The position numbers and the translations under genes are program-made. The notes under the pieces were generated by a model that saw only the letters and a program-made list of their open reading frames with translations, ran no database searches and was not told where the DNA came from. A DNA stretch of 56,656 nt from Methanotrichaceae archaeon (GTDB lineage Archaea; Halobacteriota; Methanosarcinia; Methanotrichales; Methanotrichaceae). Location: the NCBI GenBank assembly GCA_963754945.1, contig CAVWIG010000038.1:1-56656 (forward strand). The letters are read 5' to 3'. This document shows positions 5,928 through 44,931 of this stretch, piece after piece; the stretch's first letter is position 1; each line of letters begins with the position of its first letter.

Positions 5928-6192
5928 AGAATCAGTGAGCAGTGAGAAGGTTGGCGGAGTATAAGGTGAATTGAGATCCCTAAGAGATCTCTTCCCATAA
6001 AAAAGGCGAAAGGTCTCTCTAGAGATAAGAGGACTAATCCTAGTTACAGGTAATACGACCGGGTTATGTGGACACTTACAGAACATTGCGGCTCGACGAG
6101 CGAGGGAGCGATGAGTTCATATCCTTCCTATTTACCTGATGAAGTTAATATTTTTGGTGTCGATTTTTTTGAGCGGCACAGGCAATATTATC

Positions 6193-6366
6193 ATGAGAAA
6201 CGACTTCGATATGGCCACATCACGACGCAAAGAGCTTTTGGAGCTTATTGCGGCGGCGGCCGATGAAATTGCATCGATAGACTGCTGTTTACCGATTCTG
6301 TATAGTCAAGCCCTAGAGAACGATCTTCTCCAGAGCGAAGAAAAAGCGCTAGCTCAAACCCACTAG
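6193..6366 (+). CDS. Small hypothetical protein
   Basis: Short ORF MRNDFDMATSRRKELLELIAAAADEIAS with plausible helical composition; no motif recognised. Confidence 0.3.
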   Translation: MRNDFDMATSRRKELLELIAAAADEIASIDCCLPILYSQALENDLLQSEEKALAQTH

Positions 6367-6589
6367 CCTCCACATTTTAAAGCTGATGTTCATAGATAGC
6401 AGCTATGCTTATCGATCATGGGAAGCCCATAACGTATAGGCCAAGGCTAAGCGCGGGTGGTAGTTCTGGAAACGAATCGCCTTGTCAGAGCTCTCATGAT
6501 AAAGCCCTGTGGGATCTGGCTGAGGCCAAAAGAAGGATAAAGTGGTGAAATAGGACGAATGCATGATAGATGAAGCGTGAGGAGCAGCG

Positions 6590-6793
6590 ATGAAGAAACC
6601 ACCATATAACCACCGCGATCGAATTCTCTGGATCTTGGCCCAGAAAGGAGGCACTATAACTCGAACTGAGCTTCGCCGTTCGATTGAAATTAAACTAGAA
6701 AATATGGAGCGCATCTTGGGTGAGTTGGAGAAGGAAGGCAGGATTAAGAGGACCGTTGGCAAGCAGGGCGAATCGATATCGCTGAATGAATAA
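6590..6793 (+). CDS. Small winged-helix DNA-binding protein
   Basis: RILWILAQKGGTITRTELRR..ILGELEKEGRIKR is a wHTH pattern; GAGGAG RBS. Confidence 0.65.
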   Translation: MKKPPYNHRDRILWILAQKGGTITRTELRRSIEIKLENMERILGELEKEGRIKRTVGKQGESISLNE

Positions 6794-7278
6794 TATGAGG
6801 GAACGGCAAAAGTCAATGATGAAGCAATAAGAAGGACGCATGACTTTTGCCTAGATCTGTATTCGACATTCAACGTATAAGTAAACGTGGTATTCGGCAA
6901 CTTATTTTCATAAAGTTTAGAAAATTAATTCTAAAATGACCTTGGCCATGATCTCCTACTTGATGGATCATAGGCGGGGGGGGTCTGGCCAGAGAACGAT
7001 TGCAGTCTGTGGGATAGCACGGCCAGAACAAGGAGCCATCGCGAAGTGGTCCCGTCCTACTATCGACATTAGAGGATCTAAGGCATCAATTACATTTACA
7101 AAGCAATTATGCTAATTGTATCAAGGTAAATCAAGAAAATTCGCGCGAGGCTACGATTATTCTCAGCCGCCTTTTAAGTGCTAATGATAAATTATATCTT
7201 ATTTTTATAGGAATAGGACAGTGTTCAAATACTATACAGCCAAATAGATACTAAAGTTTTCGTCTAAGAGGTGGAAAT

Positions 7279-15734: not shown

Positions 15735-16154
15735 TCAAGCGGTTGTCTTTGTCTTGGCAATGTACTTGATCAGATCCGGGCCAATTTTTGACTTCCTTTG
15801 GATCTGGTTTGCTACATCGTCGGCAGTCGCACCGGAAGCTGCTAGGGTACGAATCTCCTCAATGGTAGCGTCATCGACGGTGTAGTACTCATCCAGGTCC
15901 TTTCTGTGGCCCCACACGTCTCCTTCCAGCAGCTCGATGCCCTGCATGTCCAGGAATACCTGAATGGCATTGGACATAGTCTTCTGATAAGAGTGGGGTA
16001 CCTGAATCGTTCTGAGCCTGGGGCATCTTTGCATCAGGTTGAGGAAGTCAACGTTCGATGCTCTGAAGGCCATATGGACCATCTTTTCGTTGGGATTGAG
16101 ATTGGGTATCTCAATTCTTTGACTGACTACTCTAAGTCTCATATTCTCTGGCAT
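15735..16154 (-). CDS. DUF1699 family protein
   Basis: MRLRVVS..LNPNEKMVHMAFRASN..LLEGDVWGHRKDLDEYY; paralogue at 34872. Confidence 0.9.
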   Translation of the reverse strand: MPENMRLRVVSQRIEIPNLNPNEKMVHMAFRASNVDFLNLMQRCPRLRTIQVPHSYQKTMSNAIQVFLDMQGIELLEGDVWGHRKDLDEYYTVDDATIEEIRTLAASGATADDVANQIQRKSKIGPDLIKYIAKTKTTA

Positions 16155-17597: not shown

Positions 17598-18320
17598 ATG
17601 AGAAGAGTTTTTGCAATTACAATAGCCCTTATGTTCGTGGCAATTGTGTTATCGCCGACAATGGGCTACTCAGTCCAGTCAGGTAACCATTCTTATAGCT
17701 TCAAATCTGCAAGGGTTAACTACACGATAGGCATTGAGGCGCCATCACATCAACCTGCTGTAGTGGTCACCAGGGAGCCCAACTCCCTGAAGTACGGAGC
17801 CTTATTCCAGCCCGAAGCAAAGGGAGTTGGAGAGACGGCAAAGAGCAACGTTATCGGCCTATCAACCCCATCTGATGTAGCAATACAGGCACGGACAAAT
17901 ACTCCTGCTGCCCCAAGGGCCGAGCCGAAGTTCTCCATACAGGGCATGGTCTATAGCGACCAAAACGGCAACGGGAAAATGGATTATAATGAGACTGGTC
18001 TAGCAAATTGGGTTGTCAATCTAGAGCAACCCGTGGGGAACGTCGTTTCCAAAGTCGTCACTGATAGAAATGGTGGATATAGCTTCTTTGGTCTGACTCC
18101 CGGAGAGTACGCAGTGGCCGAGGTCTTAGAGATGGGATGGTCATTGACTGCTCCACCGAACGGAAAATATGCAATCAATCTCACCAATAATGCAACCATG
18201 CTGAGTTTCGGCAACGAGATATTGCCCCCATCGATACAGAATGCAACAGCTCCTTCAAACGCAACATCTTCCTCCAATGTTACTTTGGCGGAGAACGCTT
18301 CCTTATCGAAGGTGACTTAA
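17598..18320 (+). CDS. Secreted SdrD B-like domain protein
   Basis: Signal peptide; SIQGMVYSDQNGNGKMDYNETGLANWVVNL..TDRNGGYSFFGLTPGEYAVAE. Confidence 0.85.
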   Translation: MRRVFAITIALMFVAIVLSPTMGYSVQSGNHSYSFKSARVNYTIGIEAPSHQPAVVVTREPNSLKYGALFQPEAKGVGETAKSNVIGLSTPSDVAIQARTNTPAAPRAEPKFSIQGMVYSDQNGNGKMDYNETGLANWVVNLEQPVGNVVSKVVTDRNGGYSFFGLTPGEYAVAEVLEMGWSLTAPPNGKYAINLTNNATMLSFGNEILPPSIQNATAPSNATSSSNVTLAENASLSKVT

Positions 18321-18932
18321 GAGCAGGCACAATTGCCTCTGCTTCAACGATCTCGTCAGAAAAAATAGGACAACTGCCCAAGGAGTGGTAATCAGGTATT
18401 GAAATACATGCAAAATGACGTACATGTAATGATGATCCTTGGTTCACCCTTCGATGCTGTGGGGGCATAAGAATGCTGATAATATATCCCTACTTTAAGA
18501 GCTGAAGAGTTCGATCAGTCGATGCGTGCTTCGTCCCCTCTTCGTCTCTTTACTCCCCAGGTCTTTCAAAGCCCTGGCCCCCAACGAGATGTTTGTCAGG
18601 GCTTCAGCTGAAACCTGAACCTCAGCGGTTTAAGGATTATAACGAGCATAATCTATTGGAGCCTTCGATGATGTTAGCTCCGGTCTTCTGGGAAACTATC
18701 ACATGCGAGTTGCCGATTTGTTTCGAAGGCTCTATAAATCCTTTGCGCCTCTCGAAATCGCTGAATTTAATCCCTTATTCTGCTCTTTCAATCAACAGAA
18801 TTCTCGCAACATCTGCTTTTGGTTTCCTGGTTTTGTCCAAACCTCCATTCTACCCACTTTTGGAGATGGCTACCTTTTCGCCCGTAATGAGACCGAATGA
18901 CAGGGAGCTAACATCTTCGTTAATCCAGACTG

Positions 18933-19313
18933 TTAACTGGAATTACGTGCTAAACCGGGCCAATGAGTGAGTCCAACCTTTGCTACGGTCTTGAAGACTT
19001 TGCTGGCACCTTCGTTTGGGTTGGAATTTAAGAACTTGTTGATGCTCGAAGTATATATATCGCCAGATGACATGCCGTCTGGGTCCTTGCTGAACTCGGC
19101 ATTCTGAAAAATATCGGTACTTAAACCGGAGAGATCAACTGCAAGCGGGTTGATCCAAATGTAATGTGGGTCCATCGGTTTCATCATAGACTCATTAGCA
19201 AGGTGCTCAACACCTTGATCCGTTTCTGCTCCATCTGGCGGTAATTCTGCAATAACAGGTGCTACCAAGGTTATCAGGATGGCTACAATTAGTATATCAG
19301 AAATTTTTTTCAT
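18933..19313 (-). CDS. Secreted hypothetical protein
   Basis: GGAGGTG RBS; signal peptide MKKISDILIVAILITLVAPVIA. Confidence 0.7.
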   Translation of the reverse strand: MKKISDILIVAILITLVAPVIAELPPDGAETDQGVEHLANESMMKPMDPHYIWINPLAVDLSGLSTDIFQNAEFSKDPDGMSSGDIYTSSINKFLNSNPNEGASKVFKTVAKVGLTHWPGLARNSS

Positions 19314-19610
19314 ACAACACCTCCACGATGCACCTTTCGCCTTCTTATTCAGTTATCGACGAAAAGAATGCTAAAGCTTGATCTTAATACATCGGTCCTC
19401 AAACACTCATCGCCGTTTATGTCAACGGCAAATGACGACATGAACTATTAAGCTTATAAACTTTGTGATTGTAATCGGCTGTCTCTATCAATACCTCTCG
19501 TCAGGCGTGATCCGTCTCAGTTCTATCAAATTCATGCCATTCATTTTGGTTTCTCCCTATCTTTTTCGGATATCGCTAATTCGATCGCTAAGGATGTTTT
19601 GCGTTCGTAA

Positions 19611-19714
19611 TGGACCGAGGATTTTCAGCCAATCGCCTCCCTCATCTGCTATGAAGGATGATACCATCCGGAGACGAATTAAGATGCCAAGCGATAAAAT
19701 GAAAGATGGAAATG
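19611..19714 (+). repeat. Dispersed direct repeat, copy 1 (shortest)
   Basis: TGGACCGAG..TTTCAGCC..CGCCTCCCTCATCTGCTATGAA..CCGGAGACGAATT-AAGATGCCAAGCGATAAAATGAAAGATGGAAATG shared with copies at 20373 and 21177. Confidence 0.9.
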
Positions 19715-19731
19715 GAGGCCGAACAATTCAT

Positions 19732-20280
19732 TCAGCCTTGCGCATACTTTGTCCTCACCCTGCGTGGATAATACACAGTGAACATCAAAGCAATTATAAT
19801 TACAAGTGACGATGCTATCTTAAATATAAAATCATGATTGATCGTTTGGTAGATCGCTATTCCAGCATTTGCAAGAAAAGCGATTCCCCAGAAAACGGTC
19901 ATAACCTTGACTGCTCGGATGAATCTCGGATCTTGCCATCGGCTTTCATCGACTTCTTGGCGAGCATATTCCATAACGAAGGGGCGTCCGATTATTATCC
20001 CAATCCATGTAACAGCGGCAAGCGTTACGTAAATCAGAACATTCATCATCTCCAAAATCCACATGTTATTCATAAAAACAACTGTGATCACCAAAAATAT
20101 GAAAAAAGTAAGTGTCGCCCAAGACAAGATTAACCCTGCCCGTAGATCCTTATATCCAAGAATAATGGCTATTGCCAGTGATACAATGATTGCAATCTTC
20201 ACAGTATTCAAAGAGCTGCCAGCAAGCAGCGCAAATACGATCCATGGAGCAAAACCCATCAGCAATTTGATAAAATTCAT
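19732..20280 (-). CDS. Integral membrane protein (about 6 TM), hypothetical
   Basis: MNFIKLLMGFAPWIVFALL..IIGRPFVMEYARQEV..TVFWG; ATG 20280 preferred over the longer ORF start at 20310. Confidence 0.8.
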   Translation of the reverse strand: MNFIKLLMGFAPWIVFALLAGSSLNTVKIAIIVSLAIAIILGYKDLRAGLILSWATLTFFIFLVITVVFMNNMWILEMMNVLIYVTLAAVTWIGIIIGRPFVMEYARQEVDESRWQDPRFIRAVKVMTVFWGIAFLANAGIAIYQTINHDFIFKIASSLVIIIALMFTVYYPRRVRTKYAQG

Positions 20281-20372
20281 AACTTTACATCCAACTCTAA
20301 CGTTCCACACAAGATACTTGAATTTTTCCCAAGGATGAACCGGACTTTACAGTCCCGAATTCATTGATTTTG

Positions 20373-20560
20373 TGGACCGAGTAATTTCAGCCCCCGACCG
20401 CCTCCTCATCTGCCATGAAAGATGATACTAGGCCGGAGACGAATTTAAGATGCCAAGCGATAAAATGAAAAGATGGAAATGATAGCGACAATAAGTGCCG
20501 TGATCCTGGATCAGCAGTAGGATACATGCTGATGATCTCTACGATCCTAGCAGCAATTCC
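20373..20560 (+). repeat. Dispersed direct repeat, copy 2
   Basis: Aligns with copy 1 over about 105 bp and with copy 3 over about 175 bp (..ATAAGTGCCGTGATCCTGGATC.GCAGTAGG.TACA.GCTGATGATCT..). Confidence 0.9.
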
Positions 20561-20569
20561 AAGTCGGGA

Positions 20570-20860
20570 TTAATCATCTCGTTCTATCTCCTCTAAGATC
20601 TCAGCCGCCTTCTGATAGACAAAATTGTGATGATCGACATATAGAAATTGAACTCTATCTCCCCTGATTCGGTAAACCACGACGTAAGGATTTACGTGAG
20701 AGCCACGTGCGTGTTTAAGCCTATGACGTTTTGGAGCGCCGATTGTTGGGTTATCTAGAATCTCGCTGATTTTCTTAAGAAGACGTTCTTCCAGCCCCTT
20801 GTTCTTTCTGGTTAGCTTCAAAAACTGAGTATCGAACTCAGGCGTGGAATCATATTCCAT
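20570..20860 (-). CDS. Type II toxin, RelE/ParE family
   Basis: TPEFDTQFLKL..KKISEILDNPTIGAPKRHRL..VNPYVVVYRI..FLYVDHH. Confidence 0.85.
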   Translation of the reverse strand: MEYDSTPEFDTQFLKLTRKNKGLEERLLKKISEILDNPTIGAPKRHRLKHARGSHVNPYVVVYRIRGDRVQFLYVDHHNFVYQKAAEILEEIERDD

Positions 20861-20865
20861 AGGGC

Positions 20866-21030
20866 TTATTCAAGGTTCTTCAGGTGGTTCAAGAACTCTT
20901 CCTTAGTCTTGAAAGTCCTGACTAATCCAGCATCGGCCTGTTTGATGCTCCTTCGAACGCCCTCCTCAAATTCCTGCAGGGCTGCTTCGTTAGCATCCTG
21001 GATGACGGATTTCTTTGTGGCTCCAGCCAT
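20866..21030 (-). CDS. Putative antitoxin (54 aa, absent from the ORF track)
   Basis: MAGATKKSVIQDANEAALQEFEEGVRRSIKQADAGLVRTFKTKEEFLNHLKNLE; ends 5 bp before the toxin ATG; RelB-like C-terminus. Confidence 0.75.
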   Translation of the reverse strand: MAGATKKSVIQDANEAALQEFEEGVRRSIKQADAGLVRTFKTKEEFLNHLKNLE

Positions 21031-21176
21031 GATAGGTACTCTCCGCTGTTAAGCTATAAGGATTCCGAAAAGGCAGTGAACCTTCCCACAACGTTCCATC
21101 CGCCTCAGGGCAGCCTCATCCTTTTCGGGAAAGGACTTACGACAACACCAAGCCCGTGCATAGGCACCACGTGTTA

Positions 21177-21397
21177 TCAGCCCCCCGACCGCCTCCCTCA
21201 TCTGCTATGAAAGATGATACATGGCCGGAGACGAATTTAAGATGCCTAGCGATAAAATGAAAGATGGAAATGATAGCGATAATAAGTGCCGTGATCCTGG
21301 ATCGGCAGTAGGTTACAAGCTGATGATCTATATGATCGTGGCAGTGATCCTGGTTGCAATAGGACTCACGATCGTGTTGAGCTGGATCTCGAAATAG
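21177..21397 (+). repeat. Dispersed direct repeat, copy 3 (longest; contains an intact small ORF)
   Basis: TCAGCCCCCCGACCGCCTCCCTCATCTGCTATGAAAGATGATAC.. matches copies 1 and 2. Confidence 0.9.
21221..21397 (+). CDS. Putative 58-aa single-pass membrane protein
   Basis: MAGDEFKMPSDKMKDGNDSDNKCRDPGSAVGYKLMIYMIVAVILVAIGLTIVLSWISK*. Confidence 0.55.
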   Translation: MAGDEFKMPSDKMKDGNDSDNKCRDPGSAVGYKLMIYMIVAVILVAIGLTIVLSWISK

Positions 21398-21639
21398 ATC
21401 CGTAAATATTATTGGGACTTCTTCATGGAGATTCGATAAGAAGCGGGAACAATACTGCCATCGGGGCTCCTGCGAGACTTCGATTGTATGGCCGTCCAGG
21501 ACAGGTATATCTAGGCCTCTCTGCAATAGTATGTAACCAATCCTCTACAACGTCAATTCGTAACCTTCATCTGTAATAAAGAAGTCTTCTATTGGAGAGT
21601 AAGATCCATAAAAACGGCCAGACGATTGCGGAAAAAAAT

Positions 21640-22135
21640 CTACATTTTGAAGCGTTTATAACCGCTTCCATGTGGACTTCTTATTATGAATCCTAGAGTA
21701 TTCAATCTGATCAATGAATCTGGGACTCTCCAATCTCCCCGGAGTTTTGGATCGAACTCTGGGTGGGATTCGATGTTTTGTGGATTGATCCACTCCAATC
21801 CCTGATCGTCCCGGAGCTTTCGCATGATCCTAAGAATATTGCGGTCAAACTTTTCCATCCATTTATCCATGTATGAAGTTTGTACCAGGGGCACGGCGTA
21901 AGATTGTCTGTTTGTGTTCGGAATGTCTTTCTCAGTATCCAAGAAGGTAGTCATTAGGGCTTCAAATGCTTGATTTGAGCGATCGAATGTGTCTTCGTCG
22001 AGTCTTGGGGTGAGATGCAGCCTGCAATAAGCGTTAGCTAGTTTAGCGGATGACATCCTGTCTATATTCAGTTCTGCAAAATCCTCGTCCCATTTCGCTC
22101 TTTTGATGACCTTCTGGTAAGAATCTTCTATTTTC
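21640..22135 (-). pseudogene. 3' part of an IS66-disrupted gene (MCM-like lid plus wHTH-like C-terminus)
   Basis: Joins in frame to 24758-25610 after removing the IS and one TSD copy: DNLISKI|EDSYQKVIKRAKWDEDFAELNIDRMSSAKLANAYCRLHL. Confidence 0.8.
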
Positions 22136-23189
22136 GTACTTGCTCAATATTACGTTGAATTCCCCAATCGAGTGAGTGCATGGACCAAAAATTATTAATA
22201 CATATATCTAAAATATTTTGTTTGTGCCAGATATCATACACGAGGCCATAATCAACCTCGATGTAGACAAGATCAACTTCGACGATAAAGAAGCGATGAA
22301 AGAATTGATCCTCCAGCTTCTAAGCACAATAGAGCAATTAGCCCAGTCAAATCAAGAACTCCGCAAAGACAATCAACAGCTAAAGGATGAAATAAACCGG
22401 CTGAAAGGTGAGAAAGGCCGTCCTAAAATACTGCCGGACAATCCTGAATACCAGGCTAATGTGCCGAAGGAAAAACCCAAAAAATGGCATAAAGATAGCA
22501 AGAAACCAAAGATAAAAATCGACAGGACAGAATACATTAAAATTGATAAATCGATTCTTCCACATGATGCCAAGCATAACGGCTATAGACGGGTCATAAA
22601 GCAGAACATAAAATTTGAAACCGACAACGTGGAATATTGGTTGGAACGCTACTATTCGCCGTCCCTGAAAAAGACCTATGAAGCAGAACTTGCCGAGTCC
22701 CTTAAGAACACGGAATTTGGAAGTCATCTGAAAGCATTCATCGCTTACCTCTACTATGCGGGAAGGGTTACTGAGAATAGGATCCACAAGATCCTAGAAG
22801 AGATCGGCATAATAATCTCGGAAGGCGAGATCTCAAACATACTGACCAAGGAAAAGAGCAATGCATATGCGATAGAGAAGCAGGCCTTATTTGAAACTGG
22901 TGTGAATCGGGCTGATTATCTTAACATTGATGAGACAGGCGCGAGGCATAAAGGCAATAACCATTATTTGCACGTTGTCTGCAACAAGTTCTTTAGTGCT
23001 TTCTTTATCAGGCAAACCAAAGGAAGTGATACAATCAGACATTTCTTTGGGCTAAATGATGAGGAGCAGATAGATTTACCCATTATCTCGGATGATGCCG
23101 GGCAGTACATAGATGTATCGTCACACCATGCTCTGTGCTGGATACATGAAATACGACACTACAAAAAGATGAATCCTTTTCTAATTCAT

Positions 23190-24278
23190 TAGGACTTACG
23201 CACTTGGCAGAATCTTCTTATATTGCATGGACTATATTAAGACCTACAAATAAATGGAATAGGGCTGAACTTGAATCCTTCCAAGTGCGATGATCTTGAT
23301 TATATTCACTTTCTGATAGCATCAGTAGATGTTTTTACCTGTACCGAAGCCGCAAGGTGTCAGCCAGTCGGAGAAAATAGTTCATCGCATGATGCATTTA
23401 CCCGTCTTCTACAAAGACAGCCTCCAGATACGGATACGTTGTGGAATGAAGTAAAGAATATTGTTCAGCCTCAAAATGGTTTCTTGGTAATTGACGATAC
23501 GACGTTGGACAAGCCGTATGCCAAAAATATGAGCCTAGTTTATCATCAATGGAGTGGAAAACAGCATCGACTGGTGAATGGAATCAATATTTGTACGTTG
23601 CTGTGGACAGATGGAAACGCCATAATTCCCGTTGATTTCCGAATCTACGATATAGATGTTGACGGCAAGACAAAAAATGATCATTTTCGGGATATGCTTG
23701 CCAAAGCAAAAGAACGAAGTTTTCAGCCCCGTATTGTTCTCTTCGATAGCTGGTACGCCAGTGTAGATAATCTCAAAACCATACGGAAGTCTGGATGGCA
23801 CTGGCTGACCCGATTGAAGAAAAATAGGCTGGTGAATCCAGATAACACAAAAAACATGCAAATCCAGGAGATAGAGATACCGCTGCAAGGCAGGGATGTG
23901 CATTTAAAAGCTTATGGTTTTATAAAAGTATTCAAGATAGTCTCTAATGACGGCGACATAGGATACTGGGCAACTGACGTGCTGGAGATGGACGAAGCTA
24001 AACGCGAAAAAATTGGTGGATATTCCTGGAAGATTGAGGAATATCACAGGGGAATAAAGCAATTCTGTGGAGTCGAAAGCTGTCAAGCAAGAAAAAGTCA
24101 GTCCCAGAGAGCACACATAATGTTCTCCCTGAGAGCGTTTCTCAGATTAGAAGTAGAAAGGCTTAGAATGGGAATGAGTTGGTTCGAATCTAAGCGAAGA
24201 ATTATTCGTGAGGCAATTCGCGAGTATATAAAATATCCTATTTATTCATTGTCGAATGCTTCAACTGCGTAAGTCCTA
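23190..24278 (+). mobile_element. IS701-family element
   Basis: Inverted repeats TAGGACTTACGCA / TGCGTAAGTCCTA; 5-bp TSD TTCAT at 23185-23189 and 24279-24283. Confidence 0.92.
23271..24272 (+). CDS. IS701-family transposase
   Basis: SHDAFTRLL, LVIDDTTLDKPY, KTKNDHFRDML, LFDSWY, WKIEEYHRGIKQFCG. Confidence 0.92.
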   Translation: MNPSKCDDLDYIHFLIASVDVFTCTEAARCQPVGENSSSHDAFTRLLQRQPPDTDTLWNEVKNIVQPQNGFLVIDDTTLDKPYAKNMSLVYHQWSGKQHRLVNGINICTLLWTDGNAIIPVDFRIYDIDVDGKTKNDHFRDMLAKAKERSFQPRIVLFDSWYASVDNLKTIRKSGWHWLTRLKKNRLVNPDNTKNMQIQEIEIPLQGRDVHLKAYGFIKVFKIVSNDGDIGYWATDVLEMDEAKREKIGGYSWKIEEYHRGIKQFCGVESCQARKSQSQRAHIMFSLRAFLRLEVERLRMGMSWFESKRRIIREAIREYIKYPIYSLSNASTA

Positions 24279-24757
24279 TTCATCATAAGTCGGTTCTTAA
24301 TATGTTTTTAACTGAGCTTTGGAAGTTCTATGAATTGCTTACACAATATAAGGAGAATCCTAATAAAATTATGAGTAAGTATGTCCAGGAGAGGTTTGAT
24401 TCGATATTCTCGACAGTAACTGGTTACGGGACGTTGGATGATCGCATTACAAAGACTAAGAAAAAGAAACAAGAGTTGTTGCTGGTGTTGGATTTTCCAA
24501 ATGTTCCGCTTCATAACAATCTCGCAGAGATAGCTGTGCGAGAAGGTGTGATCAAGAGAAAAATCAGTTATGGAACAAGAAGTGAACTCGGCAAGCTTGC
24601 ATGGGAAAACATGCTCTCTATAATCGATACTTGCAGGAAGCTCGGAATAAGCTTTTACAAATATCTTTATGATATATTCTCAGATAGTTATTCTATGCCA
24701 AAGTTATCCGATCTCATTCTCAGTGCTAGTAAAATCAACTGATTATTGAGCAAGTAC

Positions 24758-25610
24758 CTATTTTCGATATCAAGTTGTCTTGGGTGGGTGGGTTGATCAT
24801 TAATGCCGTGAGAAGATACTCAAGAATGTCCTGGTCTGCTTCCTGCAGTGCGCCTGTGTATACCGCATCCTTAATCAGAGTTGGTATCTGAATCTTGTTT
24901 GCTGTGGACTCTGGCGGCAGGTTGAGCAGGAGATTGTATGAAACTTCTGGAATATTGCTGCAGATACGGTATTTTTCAATTTTGTGGTTAGTAGTGGGTG
25001 AATCGATGAAATCGTACATGTACCGATTTGTTCCGTTTCTGAACTCGACAGGAAGTAGGTGCATGATAGTGTTTTTTAGGTCAACCAAGGGTCTTCTCGC
25101 TGTGCCTATATCCGCTAGTGACATTGACCCGATCCCTCCACGACCATAAATTCCTTCCGGGCAGGACAAAATCTGTAAAGCTAACGAGAGGTCGAGCTGA
25201 TCTGCATCAGCATTTTTCCAATAATCACCAATTCGGGCTAGAAATGCGGGTGCGTCCAAGTAGGGTCGTTGCATCAACGCAATTTCGGTTGGATTAAGTT
25301 TTGAGACGGCTGCAACCTGGTATACGTCTTGACAACTAAAATAGAGAGAATTCTTTAAAGGCTTGCCGAATTTTTGTTCATGCCCATCGATTTCTAATGT
25401 CACCAATTCGTTTTCTAATGGTCGCAGCTCTAGGGGAATGACATATTTGACCTTTGACGGCTGCAACTTCCGAAACGGAGATTTTCGCAACTCCAGTTCG
25501 CCTGCATTGTTATAATGAACCCAGCCGGTATGGTCTAGACTAAATAGAGTCCTCTCAATAGCTGTAAATCCGGCGTAAAAGGAGTTTAAGGATTTACTTT
25601 TGCCAACCAT
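24758..25610 (-). pseudogene. 5' part of an IS66-disrupted gene (divergent MCM-like protein)
   Basis: Likely start MVGKSKS at 25610 inside ORF 24735-25898; the frame is cut exactly at the IS66 TSD. Confidence 0.75.
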
Positions 25611-25917
25611 GTTGACGTATATACCGCAGAGGATAAAAAGTTTAGCCTGGAAAGAATAAAAACGATCACAGTGGTCGGCACTGAGGGCGAGTGACGGTAT
25701 TATGGTTTGGAGAGTTCTTGATGATCTATAGGCTCGGTAGATGCAATCGTGTAACTTAACCATGTGATAGAACCAATCGGTTACATAAGAAACATTGCAG
25801 ACCCTCAAAAAGGTAATCGGAGCAATCAAGTTCATCGGCGAATTGTGGATTTCAAAAAGACAGTGTTTATTTGTGCAATAATCTCTTACAATGAGCATTT
25901 TTTTACAGGTAAATATA

Positions 25918-25990
<73 letters not shown>

Positions 25991-25995
25991 AAAAG

Positions 25996-26069
25996 TGGGC
26001 TCGACGCGATTCGAACGCGTGATCTCCGCCATGTCAAGGCGACGTCATAACCACCTAGACCACGAGCCC
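25996..26069 (-). tRNA. tRNA-Val(GAC)
   Basis: GGGCTCGTGGTCTAGGTGGTTATGACGTCGCCTTGACATGGCGGAGATCACGCGTTCGAATCGCGTCGAGCCCA folds as a cloverleaf. Confidence 0.97.
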
Positions 26070-26197: not shown

Positions 26198-29100
26198 TCA
26201 GCGGGGTCTGGCGCAGCCGGAAACCTCTTTGTGGTACTCGTCCAGGGCCTTGATGGTTATCCTGTCCTTCTCGGCCATGACGATGGCATCGGCCGAAGCC
26301 TGGGCCGCCTGGACAGTCGTGATGTACGGCACGTGGTAGTCCACAGCGCCGCGCCTGATCTGGGCACCGTCCTTGATGGACTGCTTTGTGGTGGGCGTGT
26401 TTATTATCAGTTTGACCTCGCCCCGTTTCATGTAGTCCAGGACGTTGGGGCTGCCGTTGAAGATCTTGTTCACCCGCTCGACTGCGATCCCCGACTTCTT
26501 CAGGTACTCGGCTGTTCCGTCGGTGGCGATTATCTTCAGGCCCGCGTCTGTAAGCTTCTTGGCGGCCACCGCTACAGCGGCCTTGTCCTCATCCCTCACG
26601 GATATGAAGACAATGCCCTCCAAGGGCAGGCTGTTGTCTGCTGACAGCTCCGCCTTGAAGAAGGCCAGGCCCAGGTTGTAGTCTATGCCCATGACCTCGC
26701 CTGTGGACCTCATCTCTGGCCCGAGAAGGACGTCGGCTCCCGGAAGCCTGTCGAAGGGCAGCAGCACCTCTTTGACTGAGACGTAAGGCACCTTTGGCTC
26801 CTCTGTGCGCCCCTGCTCGGCTAACGAGTGGCCTATCATTACCGCCGCCGCTATCTTGGCCAGCGGCAGGCCTACAGACTTGGATACGAAGGGAATCGTC
26901 CTGCTGGACCTCGGGTTAGCCTCCAGGACGTAGACAGTCCCGTCCTTGTACGCAAGCTGCATGTTCATTATACCTATGACTCCGAGGTTCAGGGCGATCT
27001 TGCGCACATAATCCCTGACCACCTCCAGGACGTACCCGGGCAGGGTCTGGGGCGGGATCATGCAGGCGCTGTCGCCCGAGTGGATTCCTGCCTCCTCGAT
27101 GTGCTCCATGATGGCCCCAATCAGCACATCCTTGCCGTCGCACACGGCGTCCACATCTATCTCGACTGCATTCTGGAGGAAATCGTCTATGAGGATGGGG
27201 TGCTCGTGAGAGACCCGCAACGGCCTCCCGCATGTAGACCTCAAGCCCGGCCTCGTCGTAGACGATTTCCATGGCACGGCCCCCAAGGACGTAACTCGGC
27301 CTGACGATCACAGGATAGCCGATCCTCTTGGCAACGGCCTTTGCCTCCTCTGTTGAGTAGGCAATGCCAGCCTCAGGCTGGGGGATGTTCAGCTTCTTCA
27401 TGAGCAGGTTGAACCTCTCCCTGTCCTCGGCCAGGTCTATGCTGTCTGGCGAGGTTCCCAGGATCTTTGTGGCTAGGCCCCGCCGGGCCAGCTCCTTCTC
27501 CAGCGGAATGGCGAGGTTGATGGCAGTCTGGCCTCCGAACTGCACCATGACGCCGTAGGGCCTCTCCTTCTCGATGATGTTCATTACGTCCTCGAGGGTT
27601 ACAGGCTCGAAGAAGAGCTTGTCCGAGGTATCGTAGTCTGTCGAGACCGTCTCGGGGTTGTTGTTGACGATATGGGTCTCGATGCCGCGCTCCCGGAGTG
27701 CCATGACGGCGTGAACTGTGCAGTAGTCGAACTCAATCCCCTGGCCGATTCTTATAGGCCCGGACCCCAGGATCAGAACCTTCTTGTTCTTTGTGGGGAC
27801 CAGCTCGCACTCTGTGTCGTAGGAAGAGTAGTAGTAAGGAGTGCTGGCAGCGAACTCCGCTGCACAGGTGTCCACCATCTTGTAGGTAGGAATGATTCCC
27901 TGTGCGATCCTGTAGTCGGTTATCTCCTCTCTGGCCTTTCCGGTGATTCCCGCGACGTACTCATCGGTGAACCCAAAGCGCTTGGCCCTTCGAAGGGTGT
28001 CTGGGTTTAGCTCATTCTTGACTTCGTCCTCAACGGCTATGATGTTCTGGATCCTGTAGAGGAAGTAGGGCTCGATCTTTGTGAGGCCCACGATCTCCTC
28101 GACGGACATCCCGCGCCTCAGGGCCTGGTAGATGGCAAATAGCCTCTCGTCCGTTGGATTCTTGAGGATATCCTTGACCTCGTCATCTGTCCAGATGGTG
28201 TACTTTCCGGCGTACCCGAACTCCTTGTCTATGTCCAGAGACCGGATGGCCTTCATCAGGGCCTCCTCGTAGCTCCTTCCAATGGCCATGACCTCGCCGG
28301 TTGACTTCATGGCTGTTGTCAGGACTTTGTTCGCCTTGACGAACTTGTCGAATGGCCAACGGGGGATTTTTATGACAACGTAGTCCACTGTGGGCTCGAA
28401 AGAGGCAGGGGTCTCCTTGGTTACATCGTTCCTGATCTCGTCCAGGGTCATGCCTATTGCGATCTTGGCGGTGACGCGGGCTATCGGGTAGCCTGTGGCT
28501 TTTGAGGCGAGGGCAGAGGATCTTGAGACCCTTGGGTTGACCTCTATCACCCTGTAATCGTCGTTCTTGACTGCAAACTGGATGTTGCAGCCGCCCTCAA
28601 TTCGCAAGGCGCGGATTATGTTTATGGCGGCGCTCCGGAGCCTCTGGATCTGCCGGTCGGAGAGGGTCTGGATGGGGGTCACGACGATGGACTCGCCTGT
28701 GTGGATGCCCATCGGGTCCATGTTCTCCATGTTGCAGATGGTGATGCAGGTGTCTTTTGAATCCCTCATCACCTCGTACTCCAGCTCAGTCCACCCCTCG
28801 ACGCTCTCCTCCAGCAGGACCTGGTGGATGCGCGAGCGTTTCAGCCCAAGCTCGCAGATCTTCGCCAGCTCGTCGCGAGTGTGAGCTATCCCTCCGCCCG
28901 AGCCGCCCAGAGTATAGGCCGGCCTCACAACCAGTGGCAATCCCAGCTCATCAATGGCGGCGAAAGCCTCATCCATCGAGTTTACAGCGACGCTAGCAGG
29001 AACGGGCTCTCCCACTCGCTGCATTGCCTTCTTGAACAGGTCTCTGTCCTCGGCCTCCTGGATGGACAGAACAGAGGTGCCCAGGACTTCGACCTTGTAC

Positions 29101-29429
29101 TTCTCCAGGACTCCCATCTCTGCCAGCTCGCTCGTGAGGTTCAGGCCTGTCTGGCCGCCGATGCCGGCGATTATGCCGTCTGGCCTCTCCTTCTCTATGA
29201 TCTTGGCCAGAATCTCAGGCACCAGGGGCTCGATATAGATCTTCTCCGCCATGTCCGGATCTGTCATAATGGTAGCCGGGTTGGAGTTGACCAGGACCAC
29301 CTCTATCCCCTCCTCCCGGAGGGACTTGCATGCCTGGGACCCCGAGAAGTCGAACTCCGCTGCCTGGCCTATCTGGATTGGCCCCGATCCTATTAGCAGC
29401 ACCTTGTGGATGTCAGAACGTTTTGGCAT
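26198..29429 (-). CDS. carB: Carbamoyl-phosphate synthase large subunit, with one frameshift near 27219 (probable sequence error)
   Basis: [48 protein letters not shown], second [16 protein letters not shown]-terminal MGS domain; removing one base restores [17 protein letters not shown]. Confidence 0.95.
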
Positions 29430-30538
29430 TAGGATCGCCTCCCTACCGCCGGGACCCTGCGCTTCATAGTGCGCTGGACTGTGCTGAAGAAGGGATCTTC
29501 CGTGCACAGCGGTCCGGGATGGGCCTCGGGATGGTACTGGACTGCCAGGATGTCGAGCTTGTCGCTCTTGATCCCCTCAACTGTCTCGTCGTTGGCGTTT
29601 AGCTGAGTTATCTCAAGGTCAGTTCCCTGCACCGAGTCTGCGACCGCCGCAAAGTTGTGGTTCTGGGATGTGATGTAGACAATTCCCTTGGCCAGGTCCT
29701 TGACCGGCTGGTTTCCGCCGTGGTGGCCGAACTTGAGCTTAAAGGTCTGAGCGCCCATGGCGAGGGAGATTATCTGGTGCCCTAGGCAGATCCCGAAGAT
29801 CGGCATCTGGCCTGCGAAGTGCTTGACGGCGTCGATGGCCTCAAACGCCCTCTCTGGGTCTCCAGGTCCGTTGGACAGGAACAGAGCGTCAGGCTCGGCA
29901 GCCTCGATCTCCGACACGCTCGAGTGAGCAGGAAGGACGCTGACCTCAAAACCACGGGCTGACAGGCTGTGGAGGATGTGCCTCTTAATTCCCAGGTCCA
30001 GCATAGCGATTCTTGGTCCTTTGCCGTGAATTGTGTAGGGCCCCGGGCAGGTCACATCTCCCAGGAGGTCCTGTTCAGAGATCGAAGGCTGAGAGCGGGC
30101 CATCTCCACTACGTCTGTGTCGTAGACCTCGGACTTCTCGCCTACGGCCAATGCGGCTCGCATGCACCCCAGCTTTCTCACCTTGACGGTCAGCATCCTG
30201 GTGTCGAGATCGCATATTCCGGGCTTGCCCTCGTCTTCGAGGAACTTGGCAATAGTCCTTGAGGAACGGTAATGAGTAGGGCGGTCCCAGATCTCCCTTG
30301 CAACCATGGCCTTCGGCCACATGTGATCCGACTGAAAATCGTCTCCGGAGATGCCGTAGTTGCCCTCCAGAGGATATGTGAACATCAAAAACTGCCCGTG
30401 GTACGAAGGGTCCGTCAGCGCCTCCTCATAACCGGACATGATTGTGGTGAAAACAAGCTCCCCGGAGACCACGCCAGGGGCACCAAAACCGCGACCTATT
30501 AGACGCGTGCCGTCCTCTAACCCTAAGACCCCAATCAT
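29429..30538 (-). CDS. carA: Carbamoyl-phosphate synthase small subunit
   Basis: [43 protein letters not shown]; TAATG overlap with carB. Confidence 0.97.
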
Positions 30539-31945: not shown

Positions 31946-33151
31946 ATGGATTTAAGAAACTCTGAGGGAAAAGCAGGCTCACTTTTTCCTCTCTACCTCT
32001 CGGTCTTCGTAGCAGTCCTTGGGTTCTCACTGGTTGCACCCATTTTTCCTTTGTACGCCATAGGTCTAGGTGCCTCCTTCACGCTGCTGGGTTTCATAAT
32101 CTCTGTGTACGGAGCAGTCCAATTGATAACCCAGATTCCCATCGGAAGGCTGTCTGACAGAAGAGGCAGAAAGCCGCTGATCATTTTAGGGCTCTTGGCC
32201 TTCACCGTTCTGCCGCCTCTGTACATTTACGCCACTAACGCCTATCTTCTGATCCCCATCAGGATCCTGGGAGGCATCGGGGCCTCTGCGGTTTGGCCGT
32301 TGGCGATGGCCATGATAATCGACAAGGTCGGCAGCGAAAGTCGCGGAGCAGCCATGGGCAGGTACAACGCTGCCTTCTATTCTGCAGTGGCAGTAGGTCC
32401 GTTAATCGGAGGCTTCCTGTACGATCTTTACGGCCTGAGGGCCCCCTTCTATTTCTGGGCGGTTCTGGGACTGGTTTTCAATGATCATAGTTGCGATCAG
32501 AGTCAACGAACCTTCTAAGCACGAAGCTCTATCCACCGCACCCTCAGGCCATCCGAAGGAGGACCTGATTCTTCCCGGCTACTATTGGACCTTCCTGGCC
32601 TGTTGCGGAGTTGTCATGTGGACAGGAATCGTGGGCGGATTCAACCTGACTCTGCTTCCCAGTTATGCATCCCGCTTGGGCATATCCACCACCGAGATCG
32701 GGTTGCTCTACCTGGACTACGCTGGCTTCACAGCTCTTTCCAACATCTACTTCGGAAGGGTCTCCGATCGGGGCAGGCGCAAGTTGCTAGTGTTTGCTGG
32801 ATGTTTGGCCGGCCTTGTTGCATTCATCTTTCTTCCCAAGGCTTACAGCCTCTCCCAGGTTCTAGTTCTTATGGCATTGATCGGTCTAGGCATGGGGGTG
32901 GGCAACCCGGCAGCTGCTGCCCTTATTGCAGACACAACTTGTGTAACTAGGGGGGCGAATCTTTTGGGATATTCAACACTGCCAGGATGTCCGGTGTGGT
33001 GGTTGGTCCGCTTATCGCCGGGCTTGTCGCAGACCTTTATGGTGTGAACGGAAGCCTCCTTGCTTTTGCCGGAATATCCGCAGCGATAACACTTGGAACG
33101 CTTGTAGTAAGGGAGCCAGGGATTGGCCAACCTGCACGGAAAAACAATTGA
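31946..33151 (+). pseudogene. MFS transporter with frameshifts near 32477 and 32960; stop codon formed at the IS5 junction
   Basis: GRLSDRRGRK and GRVSDRGRRK motif-A copies; a third frame gives FGIFNTARMSGVVVGPLIAGLVADLYG..RKNN*. Confidence 0.85.
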
Positions 33152-34434
33152 GAGTTTCGAAAAACTAATCAATCGAAATACTTATATACTATTAATACTA
33201 TAATATAATGCATGAGGACTCTCATTGATTTTGCCATTCGAGCAGAATATGCTCGAGTAAAAGCCCTCGGAGATGATCTATCCGAGATCGGATCGTTGAT
33301 CAATTGGGAGCGTTTCAGATTTTTGGAACCATTGATATACAAAAATAAAACTAGCCGCGGAGGTCGTCCGAACATTGACATCGTGATTATGGTGAAAGCT
33401 CTCGTAATTCAGCATTGGTTTGGTCTAACAGATCCAGAACTGGAGCGACAGGTTGCGGATAGGATCTCTTTTCGTATTTTCCTTGGCACCACTGAAGTAA
33501 TTCCTGATTTCAGCACAGTTTGGCTATTCCGTGAACGTTTGATTAAGTGCGACGTATACGATGATCTTTGGAATGAGCTTCAAAGGCAGCTCGATGAGAT
33601 GGGGTTTACTGTAAAGAATGGCACTATCCAGGATGCAACCTTCATAACTTCGGACCCAGGTCGGAAGAGGAACAAGAAAGACGAGCAAGGCGGGGACAAA
33701 AAGGAAGGTCAAGATTCCGAAGCCACCAGTACGAGCCTGAATCAGGAGTTTGATAAAGAGCTAATTGGTATTTCAAATAATATTATTGATGACAAGGCCA
33801 AACCACAGAGACTCGAAGAAGAGCCAATAAATGAGGGAAGTTGGGCAAAAAAGGGTGTCAAATCCTTTTTCGGATATAAAGGTCATATCTCAATCGATAC
33901 CAATTACCACCTTATCAGATATTTTGAGACTACAACTGCTTCTGTACACGATAGTCAGGTAGATCTTGGAATTGAAGGGCTACCACGTTACGCCGATAAG
34001 GGATATGATGGTGCAAAAACTCGAGGATATGATGCAGCCATGAAAAAAGCTACAAGAGGTCACAAGCTTGGAATCATAGATCTTCTGAGGAATAAGAGAA
34101 TCAGTAAAACGCGATCGCACATCGAAAGATGCTTCGCTGTTATGAAGCGGGGGCATAAGGGAGCACATGTTTATGTAACAACTGTCGCAAGAGCTGGAGT
34201 AAAATTCATGATGAATTCGGTCGTTTACAACCTGGAACAGTTGAAATATTTAGTGCATAAACAAACAGCCTAGCGGAAGCTCTCTAAAAAAGCGCAAAAA
34301 TTAGAAACAACAAGGTAAATTGAAATCTAATAAGCCAATTTAGGGGTGAAATATGCTAAAAAACCACTATAAAGATTGAAAATATTAACGCAAGAATTTA
34401 AGGCTTCATTAACCAACACTAAATCGAAACCCTC
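33150..34434 (+). mobile_element. IS5-family element
   Basis: Inverted repeats GAGAGTTTCGA / TCGAAACCCTC; 4-bp TSD AATT at 33146-33149 and 34435-34438. Confidence 0.88.
33212..34273 (+). CDS. IS5-family transposase
   Basis: GGRP, LTDPELERQVADRISFRIFLG, PDFSTVWLFRE, QDATFI, FGYKGH, ASVHDSQ, YADKGY, RSHIERCF. Confidence 0.93.
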   Translation: MRTLIDFAIRAEYARVKALGDDLSEIGSLINWERFRFLEPLIYKNKTSRGGRPNIDIVIMVKALVIQHWFGLTDPELERQVADRISFRIFLGTTEVIPDFSTVWLFRERLIKCDVYDDLWNELQRQLDEMGFTVKNGTIQDATFITSDPGRKRNKKDEQGGDKKEGQDSEATSTSLNQEFDKELIGISNNIIDDKAKPQRLEEEPINEGSWAKKGVKSFFGYKGHISIDTNYHLIRYFETTTASVHDSQVDLGIEGLPRYADKGYDGAKTRGYDAAMKKATRGHKLGIIDLLRNKRISKTRSHIERCFAVMKRGHKGAHVYVTTVARAGVKFMMNSVVYNLEQLKYLVHKQTA

Positions 34435-34871
34435 AATTTTAAAACCCATAGGAATGCAACACTGCGGCAGCATTCGGACGATGCAGTTCAACACCCCACC
34501 AACTCATTGACAATTTCGTCAATCTAGGATGAATGCGCCAACAAGATAGAGCAGCTATGCTCAGATCCGCAGAGTAAGTGAATCGAGTTACGAGACAATC
34601 AGTTCTGTAGTTCAGCAAACTCGTGGACGGATCTACCGGAAGCAGTTCTTTTTGTACAGTTATGTAATCTACGGCGATTCAAGGATGGAGTCGGTATTCA
34701 TAGATTCTGAGATTTGCCTGAAGTTCTACCCTGAAACAATGATTCCTCTGAGATTTAGGATCGGTCGAGTCGAATTTTTAGTCGCTTCATACGTCGATTG
34801 TCTTAACAGGAAAAATTTATATACGTTGAATGCCGTAATAGTAAATTACAATATTAAAAAGGTGATATGTC

Positions 34872-35279
34872 ATGAAAATCAGAGTTATCAGTTACAGAGA
34901 TGAGATAGGTTCGTTAATGACGAATGAGAAGATCGTCCACCTGGCATTCAGAGCATCCAACGTGGACTTCCTAAATCTGATGCAGAGATGCCCGAGGCTG
35001 AGAGCGGTTCAGATCCCTCCTTCATACCAGAAGACCATGTCCAATGCTATACGGGGATTCTTGAAAATGCAAGGCATAGAACTGCTTGAAGGAGACGTCT
35101 GGGGCCACAGGAAGGACATCAACGAGTACTTCACAGTTCCTGATGAGGCAGTGGACGCCATTAAGTCGATGAACGAAAGTGATAACAACCCTGAGGAGAT
35201 AGAGAGGCAAGTTCAAAGGACTGGCAAGCTGGGATCAGACCTCGTAAGGTACATTGCCAAGGCAAAGACGATGGCTTGA
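34872..35279 (+). CDS. DUF1699 family protein
   Basis: MKIRVIS..NEKIVHLAFRASN..LLEGDVWGHRKDINEY; paralogue of 15735-16154. Confidence 0.9.
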   Translation: MKIRVISYRDEIGSLMTNEKIVHLAFRASNVDFLNLMQRCPRLRAVQIPPSYQKTMSNAIRGFLKMQGIELLEGDVWGHRKDINEYFTVPDEAVDAIKSMNESDNNPEEIERQVQRTGKLGSDLVRYIAKAKTMA

Positions 35280-35310: not shown

Positions 35311-36036
35311 TTATCCCATTCCAATAGGTATCTGGCTTATATCTCCGACCCCTGTCTGGATTCTATCCGCATCCTGGTGTACATCGTGGAACCTGGACTT
35401 TGGCTGAGATGCCTGCTGATATGTCTGATTTGTGGCCGATGGAGAGGAAACATTGGTTGAAGGAACGGGCATCTTTGGCTCTAGCTCGTTGACCTTTGCT
35501 GGAACATAGCTTGATAAATCTGGATTTATCCACACGGCGTTAAACTCGCCGCTGCCGGAGATCCTGCCCTCGTTCGTCTGGAAGAATTCGCCACTGATGG
35601 CTCCATCCGCGAGAATGCCATCCAACACGGTCGAGACTTTCTCCTTGCCTTTCATTGCAGCTATGGCAAGATGTACCCGATTTTCAGAGACGGACCCCGC
35701 AACAACACCGTTCCAAGGCTCGCCCTTCTCTGGCTCGTACTTGGCCTTGCCGAATAGGTCGTTGCCCTCCTGGTCCAGGGCCATTGTAATTTGATCTTTC
35801 TCGATGCCTGATACCGCCCAGATGTACTTCAAGTTCGCGGCAGTTGTATTAACAGTAGTGAAGTTCGCGGTAGAAGTCAAATCCTGATGGTTGGACATGT
35901 TCACATGAAAAGCCGCTGCAGGGCTCTCCTTGGTCGATCCATTGTTCTCGGGGCTGGAGGCTTCAAGACACAGGGACTGGCTCGTAGCGAAAAGGAATAA
36001 GAACAATATCAGGACAAACACACGTCTCTTGCTCAA
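35311..36036 (-). CDS. Secreted hypothetical protein
   Basis: Signal peptide; NxT/S sequons; beta-rich domain similar to ORF 3175. Confidence 0.75.
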   Translation of the reverse strand: MSKRRVFVLILFLFLFATSQSLCLEASSPENNGSTKESPAAAFHVNMSNHQDLTSTANFTTVNTTAANLKYIWAVSGIEKDQITMALDQEGNDLFGKAKYEPEKGEPWNGVVAGSVSENRVHLAIAAMKGKEKVSTVLDGILADGAISGEFFQTNEGRISGSGEFNAVWINPDLSSYVPAKVNELEPKMPVPSTNVSSPSATNQTYQQASQPKSRFHDVHQDADRIQTGVGDISQIPIGMG

Positions 36037-44770: not shown

Positions 44771-44931
44771 ATTTCTCACCTCTAAGAAAAACTAATACAA
44801 GGTTATCTAATGCAATCTATTTAGCTTTTTTTATGATGGATACGATTGTGCTGCCGCGAATGATGATGATAATAATACCGAATAACTGCGATGATTTTTC
44901 CTCGCCAAAAGATATTCAAGCCAGTCTGCGG

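Follow-up and report, generated by a model that had tools for sequence, protein, structure and literature searches.

Little is known, particularly for archaea, about how toxin-antitoxin (TA) and defence genes enter chromosomal islands that lack mobility genes. Displacement of the C-terminal parts of rhs genes and orphan modules of contact-dependent growth inhibition (CDI) have reportedly been described. Here we analyse a locus of a Methanotrichaceae archaeon (genome GCA_963754945.1, labelled G000; 2,968,897 bases in 54 contigs, 87.7% complete), namely contig CAVWIG010000038.1 (C38), whose 56,656 nt form the window referred to throughout and in which genes on one strand are separated by three copies of a repeat. 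The repeat is the leader and the 5' part of a conserved gene for a 46-51-aa membrane protein that lies on the + strand, opposite to the cargo genes. From our point of view, the array is best explained by sequential displacement through homology-anchored illegitimate recombination, a reading that we hold with moderate confidence, and ordinary recombination probably accounts for it better than a new enzyme system.

The closest described systems are the arrays of type VI secretion system (T6SS) effector-immunity modules, rhs genes and CDI genes, for which a combination of one-ended homologous and illegitimate recombination has been proposed (Kirchberger et al., 2017; PMC5361080). In such arrays, as in the present locus, a conserved anchor is combined with a variable module, the new module is placed beside the anchor and the old one is pushed outwards, where it keeps a variably cut fragment of the anchor; intermediates are found in other strains and no integrase takes part (PMC5361080). 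However, the host is an archaeon here and the cargo consists of type II TA pairs and a membrane protein instead of toxin tips with immunity genes. A small gene of its own, in divergent orientation, serves as the anchor in place of the constant part of a toxin gene, and each displaced fragment consists of the leader and a 5' portion of this gene. Since anchor and cargo differ in this way, the locus works like a displacement array without being a member of that class.

In homology-facilitated illegitimate recombination, the incoming DNA pairs with the recipient through a homologous anchor on one side, and its opposite side is joined in a homology-independent manner (PMC3240628; PMC5361080). One anchored and one free end would fit the variable stub ends of our locus. 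However, the process is known experimentally from bacteria only, where recipient DNA is usually deleted, whereas here the joint would lie inside the anchor, a part of which is thereby duplicated.

Integrons and clusters of attC sites lacking integron-integrases (CALINs), including the archaeal ones, share with the locus small cassettes that alternate with a recurring element, frequent TA cargo and the dispensability of an adjacent integrase (Ghaly et al., 2022; PMC9668308). The integrase-less integron arrays known in archaea are attC-based (PMC9668308), whereas the present locus has neither attC nor IntI, its cassettes carry their own promoters and occur on either strand in related loci, and what recurs in it are gene stubs of differing lengths. 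In dusA islands, the insert brings a replacement 5' end and the original 5' end is left at the far border (Farrugia et al., 2015; PMC4482086), which resembles the layout found here; however, these islands measure tens of kilobases and encode their own DusA-specific integrase, whereas our inserts measure 0.6-1.4 kb and have none. Similarly, the tandem accretion at a single att site of integrative and conjugative, integrative and mobilizable, and cis-mobilizable elements (ICEs, IMEs and CIMEs) involves decayed elements that lack integration genes (Guedon et al., 2017; PMC5704250), but it uses fixed att cores and the integrase of a partner, in contrast to the variable ends and the lack of any visible integrase-bearing partner in our case. 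A non-exhaustive literature search turned up no report of comparable arrays from archaea or with TA cassettes as cargo. The locus would be the first-seen archaeal TA-cassette variant of sequential displacement.

Anatomy of the repeat and its cassettes

The direct repeat copies lie at 19611-19714, 20373-20553 and 21166-21397, with spacings of 762-766 and 790-792 nt, and sequence comparison located them where an earlier reading of the DNA letters alone (hereafter the sequence-only reading) had seen three repeats between same-strand genes. When the 232-nt copy 3 was compared with the whole assembly, it matched only itself and the other two copies (91%, E 3e-60, and 93%, E 2e-26), which excludes chance and shows the repeat to be local and no scattered miniature inverted-repeat transposable element; the single copies around the genome that the sequence-only reading had named as a counter-indication were not found. 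The minus-strand order given there, running from antitoxin and toxin through a membrane protein to a secreted protein, was recovered as well, and the stop codons of the ParE toxin gene and the multi-pass membrane-protein gene indeed lie at most 17 nt from the next repeat copy. What had been overlooked is that the repeat is no mere separator but contains the leader and 5' coding part of a small + strand gene. Moreover, the copies had been thought to share one end and to be cut to different lengths at the other: the variable cuts are real, whereas the shared end is not a single site, as the flanks share 10-112 nt. The features of the array are as follows.

18933-19313, - strand: gene of a 126-aa protein whose N-terminus has a hydrophobic stretch resembling a signal sequence, beyond copy 1
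19562-19610, + strand: "alpha" flank, a remnant of the intergenic sequence found 3' of a HicB antitoxin gene in related loci
19611-19714, + strand: stub 1, the oldest relic, with the leader and the first ~10-14 codons; weak similarity continues to ~19727, which is unit position ~215
19732-20310, - strand: cargo 1, gene of a 182-192-aa multi-pass membrane protein (weak NCBIfam match to VC0807, below the cut-off)
20373-20553, + strand: stub 2, with the leader and ~35 codons, a 1-nt insertion (frameshift) and one internal TGA
20570-20860, - strand: cargo 2, 96-aa type II toxin of the ParE/RelE superfamily (Pfam ParE_toxin, E 8e-9, above the cut-off)
20866-21030, - strand: cargo 2, presumed antitoxin of 54 aa without family match
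21074-21147, - strand: DUF3800-X RNA motif (Rfam RF02984), matched over its full length below the gathering score and located between copy 3 and the promoter of the antitoxin gene
21166-21241, + strand: leader and promoter-proximal part of the intact copy; in an alignment of 19 copies, conservation is high from the TCAG-CCCCCG point on
21242-21397, + strand: intact small gene for a 51-aa single-pass membrane protein (open reading frame, ORF, 21221-21397 in copy 3)
21437-21544, - strand: residual 3' part (~25 codons) of a HicB-like antitoxin gene (10 of 21 residues identical to HicB of related locus L008, E 7e-5)

Over the leader that all three have in common, stub 1 shows 79-85% identity to the other two copies, and stub 2 is cut at unit position ~280-300, at the stop codon of the ParE gene.

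The small gene was followed through 15 related metagenome loci (labelled L007, L008 and so on), all of which encode the protein. Its reading frame is open in 17 of 17 full copies from the window and these loci, one of them being five codons shorter; a 3-nt indel among them stays in frame, and the second codon position is the least variable. The protein consists of a charged N-terminus and one hydrophobic helix, and 26 homologues with 75-98% identity were found among public metagenome proteins, mostly 50-51 aa long and starting at the Met encoded at 21242. Since one locus lacks the first ATG, the invariant Met at 21257, which would give a 46-aa product, may be the true start. Contigs from RNA libraries cover 21244-21425, a weak hint of expression. 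From its distribution, the gene appears to be restricted to the genus: only one of 104 other genomes of the family (here equal to the order) encodes the protein, with 47% identity, in a non-syntenic locus and without repeats. Searches against Pfam, NCBIfam and PADLOC assigned no function, and the ESM Atlas returned only unnamed small-protein clusters with scores below 0.9. At the DNA level, the conserved block around the gene (described below) had no match in 60 relatives, nor in viral contigs, GTDB genome contigs, plasmids or phages. An Rfam scan of 18500-22500 at E<=1 had the DUF3800-X motif next to copy 3 as its sole match, with none in the repeats themselves. A candidate hairpin with compensatory changes in the leader was rejected, as RNAalifold on 19 copies yielded six invariant pairs without covariation at -4 kcal/mol.

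One could imagine that the stubs themselves have a function, either as terminators or as antisense RNAs that act on the 5' end of the small-gene mRNA and thereby control a hydrophobic peptide in the manner of a type I TA system. They are indeed situated immediately downstream of minus-strand genes, with a T-rich sequence on the minus strand, and they cover the start-codon region; the small protein is like type I toxins in its size and its single hydrophobic helix. However, five related strains (L011, L012, L013, L017 and L021) keep the intact gene and are free of stubs as far as their contigs extend, and neither the lengths nor the sequences of the stubs are conserved. We therefore regard such a function as highly improbable.

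With regard to the cargo, the ParE of the window is full length and 68% identical over 93 aa to that of L014, and it shows further weak NCBIfam matches to YafQ and RelE_StbE. The 54-aa ORF ends 5 nt upstream of it, homologues of this ORF precede ParE in L007, L014 and L020, and a TATA-like CTTATAGC is present ~27 nt upstream of its start codon. With a toxin domain and a small upstream operon partner, the two genes can be classified by sequence as a putative type II TA pair. It is plausible that this pair stabilises the array against loss through recombination between the repeats. The membrane-protein gene of cargo 1 has homologues in 8 of the 104 other family genomes (29-52% identity), and in L010 it directly adjoins the intact small gene.

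Related loci and successive states of the array

A block of ~400-450 nt, corresponding to 21166-21558 of the window, is common to the 15 related loci with 75-97% identity. It comprises the leader, the small gene and, on the other strand, the last ~25 codons of the HicB-like gene, the remnant of which forms its right part and ends it near 21558. As judged from these loci, the block appears to be the only sequence common to all strains inside a hypervariable TA/defence island beside a tRNA-Phe gene. To its left, the intact copies are bordered by ParE/antitoxin, two types of HicAB, HepT/MNT, MazF together with HicB, the membrane-protein gene or unique sequence or else, where no cassette is present, by a core periplasmic-binding-protein gene. 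To its right, the slot up to tRNA-Phe is filled by NsnA-like and HEPN genes, an NsnB-like ATPase, a TIR protein, an Avs-like STAND NTPase, a DpdF-like helicase or uncharacterised genes; five contigs (L008, L011, L012, L013 and L017) reach from the block to the tRNA gene. The distance from the array to tRNA-Phe is 4.5 kb in the window and 1.3-2.2 kb in five related loci. With at least nine kinds of left neighbour for 16 intact copies with a visible left flank, the proposal of a hotspot of insertion and gene turnover is well supported, and the genus-restricted small membrane protein is always intact amid the turnover all around it.

Different cargo in relatives, which the sequence-only reading had suggested looking for between the copies, was found there and also beside them. 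Partial copies upstream of intact ones occur in L008, L009, L010 and L020 too. The alpha flank of the window represents one of the neighbours mentioned above: HicA and HicB Pfam matches are present in L009, L008, L015, L018 and L020, in all of which the HicAB cassettes lie on the other strand, and the HicAB genes themselves are absent beside the flank in the window. Its sequence together with stub 1 (19562-19714) is 84% identical to L009:1087-1243 and 87% identical to L010 from position 154. The same MNT cassette and the same DUF3800-X motif enclose HicBA in L008 and ParE in L020. In L014, two intact small genes (3015-3374 and 3963-4355) lie 0.95 kb apart with ParE/antitoxin between them and a gene for a 1310-aa DpdF-like helicase downstream. 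The 7-kb contig of L020 contains an intact unit at 3120-3531 and, 1.7 kb further on, a second run (5217-6871) of HicB, a stub, HepT/MNT, ParE/antitoxin and a partial unit, which shows that arrays can be long or duplicated within one genome.

Three of the loci can be arranged as successive states. In L009, HicAB is followed by the intact gene. L010 has the HicB-side flank of L009, a stub cut at ~215, the membrane-protein gene and then the intact gene. The window has the layout of L010, but its unit after the membrane-protein gene is cut at ~280-300, and next come the ParE cassette and then the intact gene. The same kind of cargo is thus found in the main position in one strain and in the displaced position in another, namely the membrane-protein gene (L010 versus the window) and HicAB (L009 versus L008, L010 and L020). 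A contig of sequencing run X2 that joins 20371 to 21184 corresponds to the L010 form. In L021, the intact gene directly follows the core gene, and at this place L019 and L020 carry a decayed HepT/MNT cassette, possibly with a very degenerate stub to its left. Empty sites and excised circles had also been proposed as a check; forms that lack a cassette do exist (L010, L021 and the X2 contig), whereas no "go-back" joint indicative of a circle was listed. The locus hence constitutes a readable record in which three array states are preserved in related strains.

X2 was one of four sequencing runs that were examined as contigs only, in which transcript starts, strands and rare joints are not visible and uncovered stretches carry no meaning; near-identical contigs from run X1 may stem from the source of the window itself and are not independent. 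The contig depth in X2, given as sums that do not represent copy numbers, is 240-400 for the block and 13-75 for either cassette, which agrees with a block that the strains have in common and flanks that are specific to each.

Could the copies have arisen in place, by tandem duplication through slippage or unequal crossing-over, with later insertion or replacement of genes between them and decay of the extra copies? The two intact copies of L014, the similar spacings in the window and the abundance of local direct repeats in the genome (63 pairs) point in this direction. However, the copies within the array are less alike (79-88% over the leader) than copy 3 is to the intact copies of other strains (93-97%), cargo lies between every pair of copies, and the intermediates differ from each other by exactly one cargo and one stub. 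Furthermore, copies 2 and 3 are different alleles, each tied to its own flank in other strains: copy 2 shares its allele markers with the intact unit of L010 and copy 3 with L007, L008 and L020, which have the same flank. As the markers follow the left-hand cargo, the ParE cassette arrived with a unit of its own. Taken as a whole, this makes in-situ duplication very unlikely. A signature of reciprocal crossover between copies 2 and 3 was too weak for use, with one informative site per side. Finally, identity between the window and L010 is 83% for the orthologous stubs, no higher than the 87% of the neighbouring gene, and the divergence of the stubs appears to be an unconstrained, relic-like decay.

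Recombinase searches and the route of displacement

The expectation of the sequence-only reading that neither attC ends nor an integrase are present was borne out. No pair of R''/R' attC-like motifs 50-150 nt apart was found on either strand of 19000-22000, and the contig of the window has no match to the tyrosine-recombinase family PF00589. Resolvases and PF16795 had no match in the genome, partial tRNA copies were not found, and no recombinase was detected among 60 of the 113 ORFs from the 15 related loci, five of which span the block up to the tRNA. The suggested search for a co-occurring recombinase thus yielded none that is linked to the array. In the genome as a whole, there are 14 PF00589 matches on eight contigs, several of them clustered on C15 and C18. 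This is a large number for a 3-Mb methanogen assembly.

In this context, it has to be considered that the leader and 5' part could be an attachment site at which integrase-less cassettes, moved by a tyrosine recombinase encoded elsewhere, accumulate. These would be CIME-like or integron-like cassettes, each bringing a replacement 5' end, comparable to what is seen at the 5' end of dusA or at the 3' ends of tRNA genes. The layout is like that of islands which restore the 5' end of their target and keep the old 5' end at the outer border (PMC4482086), and it resembles tandem accretion with decayed elements (PMC5704250). Every copy includes the core from the TCAG-CCCCCG point on, the cassettes are small and discrete (0.6-1.4 kb), the left end of the ParE cassette is the same in the window and L020, and any of the 14 PF00589 recombinases might be the enzyme. 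However, besides the lack of an integrase on the contig and among the related-locus ORFs, viral contigs, GTDB genomes, plasmids and phages yielded no element bearing an attP, and the leader has neither an inverted-repeat core nor a conserved structure. The edges of homology vary on both sides and the stubs diverge like relics. Some cassettes abut each other with no stub between them, such as MNT and HicBA in L008 and MNT and ParE in L020. We consider site-specific accretion to be fairly unlikely on these grounds.

The features by which the known site-specific systems are recognised are lacking as well. There is no adjacent IntI-type recombinase, no attC end and no hairpin covariation as in integrons or CALINs; the cassettes are not promoterless and of one orientation, given the TATA-like box before the ParE cassette and the HicAB cassettes on the other strand elsewhere; and neither a fixed strand-exchange core nor an integrase or a free attP-bearing element was found, as tandem accretion would have them. 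One could go further and speculate that the leader is the docking site of a platform that captures integrase-less TA and defence cassettes and is served in trans, and/or that the stubs are antisense regulators. In the former case, the locus would be an archaeal, non-attC analogue of the integron that is specialised in TA and defence cassettes; we regard these readings as quite unlikely. A dedicated and so far undescribed system, as the sequence-only reading had proposed, is not needed, as the copies are relic-like gene stubs with variable joints on both sides and no linked recombinase.

The joints are variable in detail. Stubs end at unit positions ~164, 170, 215, 238, 280-300 and 461, the last being that of the two intact genes of L014, and the homology next to the block on the flank side extends over ~10-14, 20-23, 30-47, 75 or 112 nt, depending on the pair of flank types compared. 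As far as can be judged from these sequences, the repeats appear to fit better with scars of recombination than with recombination sites, and as scars they would distinguish the homology-anchored end of the incoming DNA from the illegitimately joined one.

Under the favoured displacement by homology-anchored illegitimate recombination, incoming DNA would consist of a new cassette plus the block of a strain with a different neighbour, and hence imply DNA exchange between strains. The incoming block would pair with the resident block as the homologous anchor, and the non-homologous free end would be joined illegitimately. If this joint fell upstream of the resident block, the old neighbour would be swapped out, as may have happened with HicBA (L008) and ParE (L020); if it fell inside the block, the front part of the latter would stay as a stub and be pushed one place outwards together with the old neighbour. 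Two such rounds would yield the order (HicAB remnant), stub 1, membrane-protein gene, stub 2, ParE/antitoxin and intact gene, with the stubs decaying after their displacement. The same product could arise via Campbell-type homologous integration of a circularised fragment, a route that would be indistinguishable from the one-ended linear one.

Arrays of similar geometry occur elsewhere in the genome. On contig C15 (locus L084), a second array (42414-42672, 43794-44007 and 44695-44951) with comparable stubs consists of an Exo_endo_phos nuclease gene that carries a frameshift and, after it, two incomplete copies of the 3' part of this gene; the first gap holds a VapB-like gene and a 144-aa ORF, the second a MazF-like fragment, and an IS256-family transposase gene comes after. 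On contig C30 (L086), a 229-nt partial 5' copy of a DUF433 antitoxin gene (34266-34494 versus 35774-35996, 92%) is located 1.5 kb upstream of the intact DUF433/DUF5615 pair, with small genes between and a HicAB pair beside it. As these arrays have other anchor genes, they speak for a general recombination process and not for a machine specific to one locus.

Several points weigh against the favoured displacement. The recombination is read from arrangements and no event was observed directly, and to our knowledge homology-facilitated illegitimate recombination has not been demonstrated in archaea. Both cargo joints in the window lie at most 17 nt from stop codons and are hence tidier than random illegitimate joints predict, for which trimming by deletion bias could be responsible. 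Every type of cargo abuts the block within ~110 nt, which we attribute to putative selection on the promoter of the small gene. As no "native" context of any cargo was found, the joints offer no measure of microhomology, and each of the 14 PF00589 recombinases could act in trans. Lastly, most of the related loci are contigs of 1-10 kb, the Pfam scan took in 60 of their 113 non-overlapping ORFs, and nine of the 15 loci have one record prefix and thus sample a single community.

If the favoured account is true, "displacement" of the kind seen with polymorphic toxins would also shape the TA and defence islands of methanogens, and cassette-like arrays with stubs between the genes would be explained without a new enzyme. 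The 450-nt block beside tRNA-Phe could serve as a defined anchor for testing DNA uptake and one-ended recombination in methanogens.

The tRNA border and neighbouring elements

To the right of the block, the variable slot ends at a pair of tRNA genes and is occupied in the window by a gene of ~475 aa (the 475-aa gene below) that has been split by insertion sequence (IS) elements.

21640-22056, - strand: C-terminal piece of the 475-aa gene, 138 aa (66% identity to residues 337-474 of homologue P0027, E 2e-65)
22136-24757, + strand: IS66-like element inserted into the 475-aa gene, with Pfam DDE_Tnp_IS66 matches on 22218-23192 and 24302-24742 and with inverted repeats at 22136-22161 and 24732-24757
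23190-23206 and 24262-24278: inverted repeats of an IS4-like element nested inside the IS66-like one (DDE_5 and DDE_Tnp_1 on 23271-24272)
24735-25898, - strand: N-terminal piece of the 475-aa gene, a 387-aa ORF
25917-26069, - strand: tRNA-Phe(GAA) and tRNA-Val(GAC), the conserved right border of the slot

The N-terminal piece is likely the gene that had been called "MCM-like". This assignment found no support, as neither piece nor the full-length homologues matched MCM/AAA+ or any other family; Pfam, NCBIfam, PADLOC and PDB sequence searches with both pieces and the homologues all remained without a match. Only four homologues (446-475 aa) were found, and a fold model built from five sequences (mean predicted local distance difference test score, pLDDT, 50; predicted template modelling score, pTM, 0.28) was too poor for a fold search.

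The DUF3800-X motif of the window scores 34.6 bits, below the gathering score of 38.2, and motifs at the same place in L007, L008 and L020 reach 46.1, 45.3 and 42.9 bits. It is present in 40 of 105 family genomes, and of 23 loci inspected, 16 have it directly beside a DUF3800 gene. No DUF3800 gene was found in G000. A second copy with 75 bits is located on contig C51 of the same genome (1935-2009, + strand), just before a TATA-like box and a small ORF, and its neighbours are an antitoxin-like pseudogene, a Fic/Doc gene and a split tyrosine-recombinase gene. In G000, the motif is an orphan next to TA promoters.

At the tRNA pair, the G+C content changes from ~0.44 to ~0.58. Adjoining the tRNA genes, the large subunit of carbamoyl-phosphate synthase is represented by two overlapping minus-strand ORFs in different frames (26198-27286 and 26916-29507), which suggests a frameshift or an assembly error. 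A transporter gene of the major facilitator superfamily is likewise split into two overlapping + strand ORFs (31946-32518 and 32481-33047), next to which lies an IS5-like transposase gene (33212-34273). Genes for SdrD_B-like secreted proteins are located at 2336-2797 and 17598-18320 of the window, and two DUF1699 paralogues (15735-16154, - strand, and 34872-35279, + strand) flank the tRNA pair.

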